A DNA stretch of 43,204 nt from Candidatus Kaiserbacteria bacterium (lineage in GTDB: Bacteria; Patescibacteriota; Minisyncoccia; Phycocordibacterales; Phycocordibacteraceae): NCBI GenBank assembly GCA_023267735.1, contig JAHFMT010000003.1, positions 1-43,204 on the forward strand. Direction: 5' to 3'. The position numbers and the translations under genes are program-made. Each line of letters starts with the position of its first letter. Within the stretch, counting starts at the first letter, position 1. The notes under the pieces are model-generated. The model was not told the DNA's origin. It saw only the letters and a list, made by a program, of their open reading frames with translations, and did not search any database. Below are positions 15,362 through 42,108 of the stretch, piece after piece.

Positions 15362-15433
15362 AGGTCCGGGCGGGGATCGAACCCGCGCATCGCGGTTTTG
15401 CAGACCGCTGTGTTACCGCTTCACCACCGGACC
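15362..15433 (-). tRNA. tRNA-Cys (GCA)
   Basis: The reverse complement is GGTCCGGTGGTGAAGCGGTAACACAGCGGTCTGCAAAACCGCGATGCGCGGGTTCGATCCCCGCCCGGACCT. It has a 7-bp acceptor stem, anticodon loop CTGCAAA and T-loop GGTTCGATCC. No CCA is encoded. Confidence 0.9.
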
Positions 15434-15571
15434 AGTACTCCGATAGTACCATGATGGGTATATTTCAGCAGGAATAAGGCAATCCACAGAGGGTGTGGTA
15501 TGGGCTCTTTATTGCCCCTGCAGGGTGTTTAATTAAGGGGTGCGCCATTATACGTATATTCCGTATATCAA

Positions 15572-15802
15572 ATGAAATTCCTTCATATCATCGCCTTCAT
15601 CCTTGTGATTGTTGGCGGCATTAACTGGGGCTTGACCGCGTTCGGGTATAACCTCGTGGCACTCCTCGTTGGGGCATGGCCAACCGTAGAGATGATCGTG
15701 TATGTCCTTGTCGGACTTTCGGCGATCTATCTCCTCGTGACGCATAAGCGCTGCTGCAGTGAGTGCTCAGTGAAGTCTTCTTCGGCATCAATGTCGATGT
15801 AA
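15572..15802 (+). CDS. DUF378-family small membrane protein with Cys-rich tail
   Basis: 76 aa. IAFILVIVGGINWGLTAFGYNLVA...IVYVLVGLSAIYLL matches the DUF378 pattern. The tail is HKRCCSECS. Confidence 0.7.
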   Translation: MKFLHIIAFILVIVGGINWGLTAFGYNLVALLVGAWPTVEMIVYVLVGLSAIYLLVTHKRCCSECSVKSSSASMSM

Positions 15803-15823
15803 GTCAGGTGAGTGTGTGTACAC

Positions 15824-15853
15824 AAACGCCCCGGTATATCCGGGGCGTTTGAT
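15824..15853 (+). terminator. Intrinsic terminator AAACGCCCCGG-TATAT-CCGGGGCGTTT
   Basis: 11-bp perfect stem read directly, 22 nt after the DUF378 gene stop. Confidence 0.75.
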
Positions 15854-15872
15854 ATGGTACAAAGGAGACATT

Positions 15873-15958
15873 GCCGGGATGATGAAATCGGTAGCCATAG
15901 GGGACTTAAAATCCCCAGACTTTAATAGGTCGTGTGGGTTCGAGTCCCACTCCCGGCA
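15873..15958 (+). tRNA. tRNA-Leu (TAA), class II with long variable arm
   Basis: The fold is GCCGGGA..GGGGA-CTTAAAA-TCCCC..variable arm..GTGGGTTCGAGTCCCAC-TCCCGGC-A. No complete CCA is encoded. Confidence 0.9.
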
Positions 15959-15965
15959 CCGCAAA

Positions 15966-16004
15966 AACAATACAGCCAATGCAAGATGCATTGGCTGTAT
16001 TGTT
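15966..16004. terminator. Perfect 18-bp-stem hairpin (AACAATACAGCCAATGCA-AGA-TGCATTGGCTGTATTGTT) between convergent tRNA-Leu and tRNA-Lys
   Basis: Read directly. It is flanked by an A-run on the left and a T-rich stretch on the right, so it is likely a bidirectional terminator. Confidence 0.65.
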
Positions 16005-16021
16005 GTACTGAGAAACTTAGT

Positions 16022-16094
16022 GCGCCCACCAGGGCTCGAACCTGGGACCCACTGCTTAAGAGGCAGTTGCTCTACCAGCTGAGCTATAGGCGCG
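16022..16094 (-). tRNA. tRNA-Lys (CTT)
   Basis: The reverse complement is GCGCCTATAGCTCAGCTGGTAGAGCAACTGCCTCTTAAGCAGTGGGTCCCAGGTTCGAGCCCTGGTGGGCGCA. The anticodon loop is CTCTTAA. No CCA is encoded. Confidence 0.9.
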
Positions 16095-16142
16095 TATGTG
16101 TTTTATACCAGATAATTCACAAATTTGGTATAGTGCCCTGAC

Positions 16143-16224
16143 GGGCGAGTGGCGGAATTGGTATACGCGCATGGCTTAGGACCATGTCTCGCAAGAGGTG
16201 AGGGTTCAAGTCCCTCCTCGCCCA
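16143..16224 (+). tRNA. tRNA-Leu (TAG), class II
   Basis: The fold is GGGCGAG..CATGG-CTTAGGA-CCATG..variable arm..GAGGGTTCAAGTCCCTC-CTCGCCC-A. No CCA is encoded. Confidence 0.9.
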
Positions 16225-22665: not shown

Positions 22666-23568
22666 ATGGCCAACCGCCACTTAGCTCGTTCAATTGTCCT
22701 GCAGACACTCTTTGAGTGGGATACTGCCGCCGTGGGGGAGAAGGCCGTGAAAGATATTCTCACCAGAAACGTAGAGGAGTTTGGTGGTGGCGATACCGAC
22801 CACCCATTCATGAATGCACTGCTTGATGGTGTTATTGCTAAGCAGAAAGATTTGGATACGGTTATCACTAAAGCAGCTCCTGATTGGCCTCTCGAAAAGA
22901 TTGCTCCTGTTGACCGCAACATTTTGCGTATCGGGTTGTATGAGCTTCTGTTTGCTGATCGTGCTCAGGTGCCAGCAAAGGTAGCTATTAACGAAGCCAT
23001 TGAACTTGCAAAGACGTTTGGCGGGGACTCTTCTGGCAGGTTCGTAAACGGGGTGCTTGGTGCAGTGTATAAGGAGTTGGGTGAGCCAGGTAAAGATGAG
23101 AAGGGGAAGAAAGATGCCGTGCGTCGTGAAGATCTGCCTCTTGAAAAGCTTGGTGGTGCCATCATTTATTCTCGCCACGAGGGCCAATACTATTTAGCCT
23201 TGGTACATGACGTGTTTGGTCGCTGGACTCTTTCCAAGGGACATATTGAGGGCGACCCAACTCCCGAAGCGGGTGTGATACGTGTGGCAAAAGAAGAACT
23301 TGGCCTTGAGGTGAAGATTGAAGATCAGGTAGGTGAGAATGAGTACGTCGCTTCTCATCCTGAGAAAGGGAAGGTACGCAAGCACGTGTGGTTCTTCTTG
23401 TGTTCCTCCGAGTTCTTGCCGGTGGAGCTTAAGAAGAGTGGTGGACTTGATGATGCACGCTGGTTCCGTTTGCAGGATATTCTTGACCTTAACTTCTATG
23501 AGGACATGCTGCCGATCGTTACCGCTGCCGTGCAGAAGCTGCTTGACCGTACTGCTCCCGGGCAGTAG
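22666..23568 (+). CDS. nusB: NusB antitermination factor fused to a C-terminal Nudix-fold domain
   Basis: Residues 1-140 are NusB-like: ARSIVLQTLFEWD...RNILRIGLYELLF...VPAKVAINEAIELAKTFGGDSSGRFVNGVLGAV. Residues about 160-300 carry a Nudix-like box, GHIEGDPTPEAGVIRVAKEELGL, set against the consensus Gx5Ex7REUxEExGU. Confidence 0.8.
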   Translation: MANRHLARSIVLQTLFEWDTAAVGEKAVKDILTRNVEEFGGGDTDHPFMNALLDGVIAKQKDLDTVITKAAPDWPLEKIAPVDRNILRIGLYELLFADRAQVPAKVAINEAIELAKTFGGDSSGRFVNGVLGAVYKELGEPGKDEKGKKDAVRREDLPLEKLGGAIIYSRHEGQYYLALVHDVFGRWTLSKGHIEGDPTPEAGVIRVAKEELGLEVKIEDQVGENEYVASHPEKGKVRKHVWFFLCSSEFLPVELKKSGGLDDARWFRLQDILDLNFYEDMLPIVTAAVQKLLDRTAPGQ

Positions 23569-39207: not shown

Positions 39208-40481
39208 TGCATTTGGGGTCTCGGTACATTGCGCTCCTTATACTCAGTGTCCTCATATGGCCCCAGGGCGCATATGCACAGACACCTGTAGAGAGTTTGC
39301 GTAGCCAGATACAGTCGCATAACGATCAGATCCAGCAGTTGGAGAAGGATATTGCTACGTATCAAAAGCAGATGCAGGCACTGGGCACTACTCGCTCTAC
39401 GCTTGAATCAACGCTTAAGACACTCGAGCTTTCGCGACAGAAGCTTTCTGCAGATCTCGCCATTACCCAGAACAAGATTGCCAGTGCAAACTTGCGCATC
39501 AAAGAACTTTCTTTGTCTATTGGAGACAAGGAAGAAATGATTGCGTCGCACCGCACCCTTATCGGTCGTTTTGTTCGTGACATTGCCAGTGAAGATAGCA
39601 CCTCACTCATAGAGCGCCTTGCCGCAACAGAACGTCTTGCAGATGTATGGGTGGCGGTAGATGAAACGGTGTCGGTAAAGCGTGCACTCAATACACATAT
39701 TGAAGAACTTGCCGCAGCAAAGGTGCAGCTCACTGATAATCGTGAAGAGGTGCAAAAGACAAAGGAACAGCTTGCTGCACTTGAGTCACAGCTTATCGTC
39801 GAGCGTCGCTCAGTTGATGCAAGCAAAGCGGCGCAGCAGGCACTGATTGCACAAACTAAAAACCAAGAAAGTGAGTATCAGAAACTGATTGCACAAAAGC
39901 AGGCAGAGAAAACTTCCTTTGAGGCAGCATTGTTCCAACTTGCTTCAGAACTCACGACGGCACTTGATCCCTCGCGTATTCCTTCAGCCGCAACTGGCAT
40001 CTTGCGCTGGCCACTAGATTCAGTGTTTATCACCCAAGAGTTCGGAAAGACCACCTCATCAGGACGGCTCTATGCATCCGGTACCCATGACGGTATTGAT
40101 CTTCGTGCTTCGGTAGGTACGCCGGTGCGTGCCGCCCTCTCAGGCACTATTCTTGAAGTGAATCATGGGGCAGTGCCTAACTGTCAGTACGGCAAATGGG
40201 TGCTGGTGAAGCATGCAAATGGACTCACTACCCTCTACGCGCACTTGTCAGAGATAGCGGTGCAGAAAGGGCAGGTGGTCACGACAGGGCAGGTGGTTGG
40301 GTTTGCGGGCAGTACGGGGTACGCAACAGGACCCCATCTCCACTTCACGGTATATGCTTCTGAAGGGCTCTCCTTCAAGCAGTACACCTGCAAGAGTGGT
40401 CCGGTGGTGACGGTGCCAATTGCGCCACCAACAGCCTATTTAAATCCACTCCTGTACCTCCCAGCATTCCGTCCGCTCTAG
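39204..40481 (+). CDS. M23-family peptidoglycan metalloendopeptidase with N-terminal coiled coil (EnvC-like)
   Basis: It has a signal peptide, about 230 aa of heptad-rich Q/E/L/K sequence, then GTHDGIDLRASVGTPV and GSTGYATGPHLHFTVY (the HxxxD and HxH zinc sites). ATGA overlap with gltX. Confidence 0.88.
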   Translation: MMHLGSRYIALLILSVLIWPQGAYAQTPVESLRSQIQSHNDQIQQLEKDIATYQKQMQALGTTRSTLESTLKTLELSRQKLSADLAITQNKIASANLRIKELSLSIGDKEEMIASHRTLIGRFVRDIASEDSTSLIERLAATERLADVWVAVDETVSVKRALNTHIEELAAAKVQLTDNREEVQKTKEQLAALESQLIVERRSVDASKAAQQALIAQTKNQESEYQKLIAQKQAEKTSFEAALFQLASELTTALDPSRIPSAATGILRWPLDSVFITQEFGKTTSSGRLYASGTHDGIDLRASVGTPVRAALSGTILEVNHGAVPNCQYGKWVLVKHANGLTTLYAHLSEIAVQKGQVVTTGQVVGFAGSTGYATGPHLHFTVYASEGLSFKQYTCKSGPVVTVPIAPPTAYLNPLLYLPAFRPL

Positions 40482-40766: not shown

Positions 40767-40790
40767 ACCCGCTTTCGTGGCGGGTGTTTT
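40767..40790. terminator. Terminator ACCCGC-TTTCGTG-GCGGGT flanked by an A-run and GTTTTGG (bidirectional)
   Basis: Read directly. Confidence 0.65.
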
Positions 40791-40859
40791 GGTAAAAGAG
40801 AAAGCGCCGTACCCGAAGGTCGTGCGCTCGTTTGCTACCAAGAGAGCTAATTATTCCAA

Positions 40860-41084
40860 TCACGTTCTGCCGGTCTGTTTTCTGGAATCCCACGATAGCC
40901 ACGACTTCAGTCCTCCCAGGAATATTCCCAGGCCCAGTACCGTTATGAAGGTATAGCCCACGATTAAGGTTCTGTGAAATGCAACGGGCGTGTTAACTGG
41001 ATTTAACTCCAGGATTTCCAAAACCGCATGAGGACCAAAGATCACGAGCATGAGTCCTGCGACCGCGATAATGAGACGATACAT
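40860..41084 (-). CDS. Hypothetical two-TM small membrane protein (SD-led)
   Basis: 74 aa. AAGGAG lies 6 nt upstream of ATG 41084. There are two hydrophobic helices. Confidence 0.6.
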   Translation of the reverse strand: MYRLIIAVAGLMLVIFGPHAVLEILELNPVNTPVAFHRTLIVGYTFITVLGLGIFLGGLKSWLSWDSRKQTGRT

Positions 41085-41187
41085 GTCGACTCCTTTCGTT
41101 CAAAAAGAACTGAAAATTTAAGCACTCGTACCATACAATATATTTTTTATTTTGTAAATGTAGAGATAATATGATCCCCAGTAAATA

Positions 41188-41204
41188 GGGAAGTACGACT
41201 TCCC
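41188..41204. repeat. Hairpin GGGAAGT-ACG-ACTTCCC (left copy of a repeated hairpin)
   Basis: Read directly. It matches 41815-41831 at 15 of 17 positions, with both differences in the loop. Confidence 0.7.
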
Positions 41205-41814
41205 TGAAGCCAACTTATTTTTACCTGATTAATTACCCTCGTCCTTTATCTGATCCTTAATTAATTTATGTATAGATGATTACTGCACAAGAGTTAGATA
41301 AATCAATATTTCTCGCTCAAAAAGCACCTGTGGATAACGTTTCTCGGTCATCCGAGATAGGGAGTAGGGGAGAAGTGCTTTCCTTACCCTATAGCCCCTC
41401 TATACTCTCTCATAACCCCTACATACAGCGTCTGTGTGGGCATATAAGTATATATAGTAACGATTATGTATCTCGTTAATACGGTACATACGCGCAGGAG
41501 TGGTGAAGTACCCGACACAGATCCCCTCAAAGAATAGGTATCGGTAAATAACCTTGCATCCTATATTCTCTTCGCAAAAGGCATATTGTGCGAAGATTAT
41601 GTATCAAGCATTGTAAACATTGGATTAATTAAAATCGCTCTGCTCCCTATCATGGGTATACTCAATTTTTCCTAAACTTCTTTAGTGTCTGTGAAAATGT
41701 TTTTATACCTGCGTTTCTCTACCACCCCAAGGGTCTCTTGGTACTAATAATTTTTCCTTTGAAGAGACCTTTGTAGAACCTAAAACAACCTTTGTGAAAA
41801 CTGGGGAGGTTTCG

Positions 41815-41838
41815 GGGAAGTCGGACTTCCCTTTTTAT
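41815..41838 (+). terminator. Hairpin GGGAAGT-CGG-ACTTCCC plus TTTTTATT (right copy; plus-strand terminator)
   Basis: Read directly. Confidence 0.65.
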
Positions 41839-41847
41839 TAAATAAGA

Positions 41848-41869
41848 AAGCCACCCCGAAGGATGGCTT
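41848..41869 (-). terminator. Hairpin AAGCCACCC-CGAA-GGATGGCTT; on the minus strand it is followed by TCTTATTT. Terminator of the 41896-42108 gene
   Basis: Read directly. It lies 27 nt after the minus-strand stop. Confidence 0.65.
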
Positions 41870-41895
41870 CTATCTTGCTCTGAGATCCTTGAGAC

Positions 41896-42108
41896 CTAGA
41901 TGGTGTCCAACTCCCTTTGGAGTCCGAGTTCATCTTCGGACTCCAAGAGATTCAGAAAATGAGCTTTTTCGAAATTTCTGCCAGTGACCAGGCACCAAAG
42001 GTACAAGGCAAAAAGCACTGCCAACAAGAGGAAAAGTAGTCCAAGGCACTGGAAAAGAAACCAGAGGCCTCTGACCCAGTGTCCGATTCCCAGGAAAAAC
42101 TGTCGCAT
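41896..42108 (-). CDS. Hypothetical small membrane protein with acidic tail (SD-led)
   Basis: 70 aa. GGAGG lies 4 nt upstream of ATG 42108. It has a hydrophobic core, WFLFQCLGLLFLLLAVLFALYLWCLV, and its own terminator. Confidence 0.6.
   Translation of the reverse strand: MRQFFLGIGHWVRGLWFLFQCLGLLFLLLAVLFALYLWCLVTGRNFEKAHFLNLLESEDELGLQRELDTI

Follow-up and report, generated by a model that had tools for sequence, protein, structure and literature searches.

A probable dif locus with site-specific palindromes of a converging polar word in a Paceibacteria-class bacterium of the Candidate Phyla Radiation

Among the described systems for chromosome dimer resolution, those closest to the locus reported here are XerCD/dif, with the translocase FtsK and the FtsK-orienting polar sequences (KOPS), in Escherichia coli, and CodV-RipX/dif, with the SpoIIIE recognition sequences (SRS), in Bacillus subtilis. 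Xer recombination sites consist of two 11-bp arms around a 6-bp centre (PMC5357621; PMC2958812). The KOPS of E. coli is GGGNAGGG, and strand skew and convergence on dif are the defining properties of FtsK-orienting polar sequences (PMC5357621). Other systems employ a single recombinase, such as XerS/difSL of streptococci and lactococci, XerH/difH of Helicobacter and Campylobacter, and XerA/dif of archaea with the archaeal short polarized sequences (ASPS). In the archaeal case, there is precedent for identifying the site in silico, from an 11-6-11 repeat and the summit of a polar word (PMC2958812). In this study, we analysed a window of 43,204 nucleotides, which is the whole of the stretch taken from contig JAHFMT010000003.1 of a Candidatus Kaiserbacteria bacterium (assembly GCA_023267735.1), and in particular an AT-rich spacer at positions 41085-41895. 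Our results indicate that this spacer is probably the dif locus of a bacterium of the class Paceibacteria in the Candidate Phyla Radiation (CPR, or Patescibacteria), the place at the replication terminus where chromosome dimers are resolved. The CPR represents a large share of bacterial diversity and, to our knowledge, almost nothing is known about chromosome segregation in its members.

The site itself came to light in a comparison of the spacer with the 10-kb gltX flanks of relatives. At 2-9 kb downstream of gltX, a single short block recurs there, always in the same orientation. In the window, this block is the 28-bp core TCTTCGCAAAA-GGCATA-TTGTGCGAAGA, made of a left arm (41569-79), a 6-bp centre (41580-85) and a right arm (41586-96). 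The two 11-bp arms are inverted and symmetric at 10 of 11 positions, which is the architecture of a Xer site. The core coincides with the hairpin CTTCGCA..TGCGAAG (41570-41595), which the original prediction had listed correctly as a local feature, missing its standing as the conserved core of the whole locus. Among the relatives, the consensus is nnnnCGCAAAA-GATATA-TTGTGCGnnnn; of about 36 Paceibacteria loci, 22 have the block, each as one copy in the orientation of gltX, and the non-CPR loci compared all lack it. A position weight matrix built from these 22 relatives scores 31.6 bits at the core of the window, and the next best plus-strand site in the 43 kb reaches 3.4. The core is thus found once in the window. 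Moreover, a metagenome scan returned 85 contigs with the core, and every one of them, including contigs of 674 and 742 kb, carries exactly one copy.

We compared the core with the dif of E. coli, whose reference sequence was confirmed at its known map position in NC_000913. The window core is identical to it at 17 of 28 positions (16-19 in relatives), and composition-matched shuffles match at 8.3 positions on average, with P(>=17) = 2.5e-4. Archaeal dif sites have been accepted at 14-18 matches out of 28 (PMC2958812). As in XerCD/dif, one arm is better conserved than the other: across relatives the right arm and the centre are nearly invariant and the left arm is looser, a difference reminiscent of that between the XerD and XerC arms. 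The outer arm positions tend to co-vary on both sides. Unlike those of E. coli dif, the arms here mirror each other almost perfectly, and each is similar to the XerC arm of E. coli (CGCAAAA vs CGCATAA). High symmetry is shared with the sites of the single-recombinase systems, and suggests that one recombinase species may act on both arms.

Two further sites that resemble the core were seen in relatives. In L004, a second dif-like site, GTGTACGATAA GATATA TTGTGCGACGT (16024-16051), lies 2.5 kb to the right of the main one, where the contig ends after a further 3 nt; it could indicate a module flanked by dif sites, or it could have caused the break in the assembly. A second core-like site in L035 lies inside a long open reading frame (ORF) and was rejected as a chance match.

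The core does not depend on its surroundings. It lies between convergent genes in 12 loci, and in an alignment of the surroundings of 14 loci it alone is invariant, the flanks not being alignable beyond short motifs. Because it stands alone in spacers of 66-158 bp in three relatives (L021, L032 and L033), the core is, on this comparative evidence, an autonomous DNA site and not a piece of a large RNA. The original prediction had left open, among other readings, a structured RNA of about 600 nt. In this scenario, a plus-strand non-coding RNA of some 600-650 nt would run from the left of the two hairpins that bracket the spacer to the right one and its T5 run, with its ends pairing. Three observations speak for such a transcript: the right hairpin and T5 have the look of a plus-strand terminator with no coding sequence upstream, the minimum free energy fold pairs the two ends (z = -4.7), and GGGAAGT/ACTTCCC motifs flank the core in relatives. 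However, the minus strand folds nearly as well (z = -3.3), so that fold scores do not discriminate, and negative values on both strands are what DNA inverted repeats produce. The flanks of relatives align in short words only, and the closest relatives lack the left hairpin and differ in the interior. In addition, the flanking word is a genome-wide polar motif, described below, rather than an RNA-specific helix. The Rfam search proposed earlier yielded no Rfam 15 family for the region, either at gathering thresholds or at E<=10, apart from sub-threshold terminator-like matches; ARAGORN detected no tRNA or tmRNA in the region, and the Rfam matches of the window are four tRNAs located elsewhere. 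With the core alone in short spacers, we consider such an RNA very improbable.

A second line of evidence comes from a short word that points at the core from both sides. We ranked all 6- to 8-mers, in an unbiased manner, by their occurrence towards the core versus away from it. AGGGAAG was the top 7-mer in 19 genome loci (171:12, or 128:5 when the 400 nt on either side of the core are excluded). It again came first in the independent metagenome loci (132:10), followed by AGGGGAG (91:5). The counts of RGGGAAG invert across the core, from 193 forward and 24 reverse copies on the left to 14 and 110 on the right in the genome loci, and from 103 and 19 to 4 and 97 in the metagenome set. Similarly, GGGAAGT is found almost solely on the plus strand to the left of the core, and ACTTCCC to its right. 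In the window, the left arm holds 22 forward and 2 reverse copies of RGGGAAG (46 and 5 for GGGRAG), and 9 of the 22 forward copies fall within minus-strand genes. Word polarity is independent of gene orientation, as the ratios of forward to reverse copies are 125:9 in plus-strand and 37:4 in minus-strand genes on the left, and 0:12 and 2:30, respectively, on the right.

Of the 38 loci that extend for 2 kb or more to the left and to the right, 32 show the polarity flip, and the flip is also seen in loci without a turn of the GC skew at the core. With copies in the expected orientation as close as -46 and +35, the flip is confined to about 80 bp around the core. The word also becomes denser close to the site, from about 0.5 per kb beyond 500 bp to 2.7-4.2 per kb within 300 bp on each side, a 5- to 8-fold rise. 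In L125, the closest relative with long flanks, which is 72% identical to the window in nucleotides over gltX and the M23 peptidase gene, the core is identical and the polar word flips as well. The consensus AGGGRAG includes the first six bases of the E. coli KOPS. Both systems share a G-rich word (GGGRAG vs GGGNAGGG) that lies at about 90% on one strand per chromosome arm, changes strand at the site and grows denser towards it; in the window, the polar word differs in being a 6-7-mer. One forward copy of AGGGGAG, listed in Table 1, is aimed at the core from -207, and TAGGGGAG is found at -198 to -250 in L009, L010, L012 and L015.

The position of the core in the chromosome may point in the same direction. 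The cumulative GC skew of the window rises over 40 kb, which is the whole of the left arm, and peaks at 40319, 1.25 kb from the core. A local skew maximum lies 34-260 bp from the core in L014, L032, L033, L035 and L036, and at most 2.5 kb away in L004, L006 and L010. In XerCD/dif, the site is present as a single copy near the skew inversion, an arrangement that the core may share. By itself, the GC skew is ambiguous in about half of the relatives. It is thus suggestive, not decisive, of a terminus.

These data bear on another proposal of the original prediction, a replication origin or a plasmid-like iteron or partition element, for which a DnaA box, an AT-rich stretch and repeated words had been invoked. 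The proposal was in the right area of biology, and its ingredients are real. A perfect DnaA box, TGTGGATAA, lies at 41329-41337, the GC content of the spacer is 38.6%, short repeated words are present where they had been reported, and the 10-mer TGTGGATAAC is kept in the close relatives L123 and L125. Nevertheless, the box is solitary: with up to one mismatch there are 11 DnaA boxes in the window, against 8.0 +/- 2.7 expected, and one in the region, and the 10-mer occurs in only 6 of 108 loci. The repeats do not exceed chance, no iterons were found, GATC is not enriched and the other words were picked post hoc; the exact 11-mer repeat GATTATGTATC, present twice, is equalled or surpassed in length in 48 of 500 shuffles. 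Neither dnaA nor dnaN is among the scanned ORFs of the window. The polar word converges on the core, as at termini. Finally, the cumulative skew analysis that had been suggested as a check on the origin, carried out on the window and on relatives, shows a peak here instead of a minimum. Because an origin sits at the skew minimum, this rules an origin out, and we regard the proposal as a whole as exceedingly improbable.

If the core is a dif site, Xer recombinases should bind it, and some relatives encode such an enzyme next to it. In 3 of the 85 metagenome contigs, a Xer-family gene of 308-319 aa starts 32-39 bp from the core (L136:7490-8510, L127:440-1460 and L140:1309-2289). Over their full length, these core-adjoining genes match best, among the NCBIfam models, XerD, XerC, a generic tyrosine recombinase and XerA, with E values of 1e-60 to 1e-78; the L140 recombinase lies above the NCBIfam cut-off for XerA. 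L136 comes from a 102-kb contig, and there too the polar word flips. Recombinase genes that abut their site are also a feature of xerS-difSL and xerH-difH. On the other hand, difSL is 31 bp long, compared with 28 bp here, and no recombinase gene adjoins the core in the window or in most relatives. Among the genome loci, L041 encodes a gene with a Xer domain pair.

The core is also used by integrated elements. A scan of viral contigs with 17 nt of the core recovered 33 contigs, most of which carry the complete symmetric 28-mer ATGTCGTAAAA-GATATA-TTGTGCGACAC. In two of them (L087:2200-7640 and L092:2067-7530), a 5.4-kb element lies between two copies of the 28-bp site, the second copy having a hybrid left arm. 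The L087 element, which was annotated, encodes a Zot-like ATPase and a rolling-circle Rep, and L092 shows the same two-site arrangement. These elements look like inovirus-type prophages integrated at dif by the Xer machinery of the host, resembling in this respect the integrative mobile elements exploiting Xer (IMEX) and filamentous phages such as CTXphi. CPR bacteria are reported to harbour inoviruses (PMC6813254). Against a phage database, the prophage contigs gave one match, of 170 bp, to Zot. Unlike in these contigs, no remnant of such an element is detectable in the spacer of the window, and a tblastn search of the ORFs of core-bearing viral contigs against this spacer gave no real match. 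The gene just upstream of the element in L087 and L092 is murG, which is also a neighbour in the window.

The same observations could be read differently, with the 28-bp core being the target of a tyrosine recombinase that has another role, such as an attB hotspot or an inversion switch, and lying near the terminus by chance. The rarity of core-adjoining recombinase genes (3 of 85 contigs) and the use of the core by a prophage are in line with this idea. However, the core is conserved across classes of Patescibacteria in a syntenic position, it resembles the canonical dif, and the polar word converges exactly on it. Moreover, the adjoining recombinases are Xer-like over their full length, and the core, being single-copy, has no partner for inversion. 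We therefore hold a role of this kind to be highly unlikely.

A feature that sets this locus apart is a pair of palindromes, reported in the original prediction as near-identical hairpins bracketing the spacer. The two GGGAAGTnnnACTTCCC palindromes, GGGAAGTACGACTTCCC (41188-41204) and GGGAAGTCGGACTTCCC (41815-41831), are indeed present and are the sole matches in 43 kb, where shuffles predict 0. Each folds at about -10 to -11 kcal/mol, and their flanks are mutually inverted (41182-41222 vs 41797-41837, 78% complementary over 41 nt). In each palindrome the polar word is present twice, once forward and once reverse, in a head-to-head arrangement. In a set of 108 loci, GGGAAG-N0-9-CTTCCC was counted 13 times at up to 500 bp from the core and 0 times in the remaining 851 kb. 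Hence, the association of the hairpins with this locus is not coincidental, as had been proposed, and the alternative that they are scattered as generic terminators does not apply. The 13 palindromes are placed at -385 to -208 and at +223 to +249, with constant stems and different loops; those of L171, L109, L164, L019, L027, L038, L179 and L139 lie at -208 to -291. In the closest relatives, L123 and L125, the right palindrome is kept (at +249 and +230, respectively) with changes in the loop only, and the left one is absent. A lone forward word seems to stand at the equivalent place in a weak alignment, and an insertion of 11 nt beside such a single forward motif may have given rise to the left palindrome.

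The right palindrome resembles a Rho-independent terminator of the plus strand, with an 8-bp G+C-rich stem and T5, and is followed by the minus-strand terminator of the next gene (41870-41847), exactly as first described. A T-rich tail is present in 4 of the 13 palindromes, those of L123, L125 and L139 among them. Since 9 of the 13 lack a T-run and none is found away from the core, the palindromes are not generic terminators. In our preferred reading, they would be protein-binding boundary elements of a dif cassette, and the right one might also terminate plus-strand transcription, thereby insulating the core. More tentatively, the palindromes, some 210-385 bp to either side, could be dedicated accessory elements of a dif cassette specific to the CPR, a possibility we consider worth stating but rather doubtful. 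Such elements might bind a dimeric protein, or the gamma domains of a translocase so as to stop, unload or reload it, or they might loop out the core. If true, Xer recombination would have an additional level of control, one for which there is no description from other bacteria.

Head-to-head word palindromes at a preferred distance of 210-385 bp distinguish this locus from XerCD/dif, and we know of no such feature at other dif sites. A parallel may be found in the plasmid Xer sites cer and psi: the conserved modules about 200 bp from the core could bind accessory proteins, as accessory sequences do, although this is an analogy only. Here the modules stand on both sides and are built from a chromosome-wide polar word, and no PepA, ArgR or ArcA-type sites were identified. 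One of these modules lies on the left flank (41342-41377) and consists of a TCTCGG-N4-CCGAGA hairpin followed by G-rich words. L009 and L010 carry this hairpin at about -220 and L014 at about -150, and it also occurs in L123 and L125. The DnaA-box-like 10-mer stands beside this module in the window, L123 and L125 (at about -200), and is mirrored at +48, on the opposite strand, in L134 and L177.

The hairpins had also been taken for the ends of a decayed mobile element, and this deserves consideration, as elements do integrate at the core elsewhere. The spacer would then be an insertion scar, enlarged by a miniature inverted-repeat transposable element, an IS200/IS605-like element or a Xer-exploiting remnant, with the hairpins as terminal inverted repeats. 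The mutual inversion of the two hairpin regions agrees with such an origin, as does a spacer longer than that of most relatives, and L125 lacks about 390 bp on the left, including a 74-aa ORF. A partial repeat of the core centre and 3' flank at 41440-41472 could be counted on the same side. Against this, palindromes recur at the same distance in 11 other lineages with different loops and interiors, which argues for a feature of the locus rather than a single insertion. The word in the hairpins is the polar motif of the host itself, the window holds no second core-like site, and no protein-level similarity to integrated elements was found. An insertion scar therefore appears improbable to us. 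As for the partial repeat, GGCATAT-N16-GATTATGTATC at 41440-41472 echoes GGCATAT-N8-GATTATGTATC at 41580-41605; it may be a decayed half-site, and the 11-mer repeat by itself is within chance (P ~0.1).

We return to the interpretation of the spacer as a dif locus. The architecture and conservation of the core, its copy number and position in the contigs covered, the convergence of the polar word, the linkage with recombinase genes and the use by prophages are all direct observations, made partly in related contigs. From these, a mechanism can be proposed by comparison with the described systems. One or more Xer recombinases encoded elsewhere in the genome would bind the two arms of the core, and strands would be exchanged across the 6-bp centre GGCATA, resolving chromosome dimers at division. 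AGGGRAG would act like KOPS, loading or orienting an FtsK-type translocase towards the core from either arm, and the palindromes would be accessory or boundary elements of the locus. An ftsK gene is annotated in the cultivated CPR bacterium TM7x (PMC10768705). Our survey of the searchable literature retrieved nothing that links dif, Xer, chromosome dimers or a KOPS-like word with CPR, Patescibacteria or Parcubacteria. The locus is thus of the dif/Xer/KOPS type in a phylum for which that literature holds no description, and the site-specific palindromes are a twist that falls outside a simple KOPS model.

Several points weigh against this interpretation. Neither xer nor ftsK is among the genes of the 43-kb window, so that their presence elsewhere in this genome is presumed, and no ftsK was seen in any of the related loci retrieved. 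In the genome loci of relatives, both are absent apart from the gene in L041, and in most relatives none lies beside the core. The prophage-bearing contigs are low in GC and their MurG is only 31% identical to that of the window, and their host may differ. Only 1.6 kb of the window lies to the right of the core, and the skew turn and the polarity flip are therefore directly visible solely in relatives. In about ten of these relatives, the local skew maximum is 7-16 kb to the left of the core. Lastly, the outward-pointing copy of the word in each palindrome is not expected under a simple KOPS model.

The 28-bp consensus and AGGGRAG could be of practical use. In the thousands of CPR genomes that are in fragments, the two together show where the terminus lies and how contigs are oriented, allow checks for misassembly and help to spot filamentous prophages that integrate at the core. 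Genetic tools for the few CPR bacteria amenable to manipulation could use the core as a recombination site provided by nature; natural transformation is available in a Saccharibacterium (PMC10633639). The palindromes of the polar word, though a small feature of the site, could reveal how the translocase is handled at dif.

Table 1. Features of the dif-like spacer and of the chromosome arm to its left, in window positions.
Feature	Start	End	Strand	Basis
Left chromosome arm, polar word almost only on the plus strand	1	41084	+	Counts of RGGGAAG and GGGRAG
Left palindrome (GGGAAGT-ACG-ACTTCCC, 41188-41204) and its flanks, 385 bp to the left of the core	41182	41211		Pattern search, fold
DnaA-box-like 10-mer TGTGGATAAC, solitary	41329	41338	+	Box search
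Hairpin TCTCGG-TCAT-CCGAGA, conserved left-flank module about 220 bp from the core	41342	41357		Recurrence in relatives
AGGGGAG, forward polar word aimed at the core from -207	41366	41372	+	Word match
Dif-like Xer recombination core TCTTCGCAAAA-GGCATA-TTGTGCGAAGA	41569	41596	+	Position weight matrix, arm symmetry, dif match, conservation
Right-flank block kept among the closest relatives, TTATGTATCAAGCATTGTAAACATTGG...CGCTCTGCTCCCTATC	41597	41650	+	Alignment with L123 and L125
Right palindrome GGGAAGT-CGG-ACTTCCC (41815-31) with T5, 242 bp right of the core	41808	41837		Pattern search, fold
Intrinsic terminator of the minus-strand gene 41896-42108	41847	41870	-	Hairpin sequence

The spacer that holds these elements measures 811 bp and lies between two small minus-strand ORFs (40860-41084 and 41896-42108). 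Its description as AT-rich and poor in ORFs holds: its GC content is well below the 51.2% of the whole window, and its longest ORF, of 67 aa (41276-41479), is not credible as a gene. The small ORFs inside and around the spacer, the 67-aa one included, matched no Pfam family. Low GC and the lack of ORFs fit the non-coding spacer that contains the core in relatives, which ranges from 66 to about 1160 bp, and the conserved core supports the earlier view of a functional non-coding element. Neither a ~600-nt RNA nor a decayed mobile element, as originally envisaged, found similar backing. The neighbouring genes include murG, gltX, an M23 peptidase gene, ftsW, ftsZ, ftsA, gyrA, dnaE and smc. The best relatives of the gltX product are 61-67% identical, and their genomes are labelled Paceibacteria, Kaiserbacteria or Parcubacteria, all within the Patescibacteria/CPR. 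Two contigs that encode the same proteins (L001 and L002) are 100% identical to the window and offer no variation to analyse. Comparison of window positions 40800-41300 with L125 places the missing ~390 bp there, and the 74-aa ORF lost with them is on the minus strand; because of this absence, the left part of the spacer is variable between close lineages.

Further observations concern the rest of the window. To the left of the spacer, at 40767-40830, an 82-aa ORF is followed by a bidirectional terminator hairpin, ACCCGC...GCGGGT, and next to it lies a hairpin-forming block, GCGCCGTACCCGAAGGTCGTGCGC; both are kept in L123. Four tRNA genes, on both strands, are packed within 0.9 kb at 15362-16224. 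Finally, a single plus-strand ORF of 300 aa (22666-23568) joins a NusB domain (residues 7-136) with a NUDIX hydrolase domain (residues 177-284), which is an unusual fusion.

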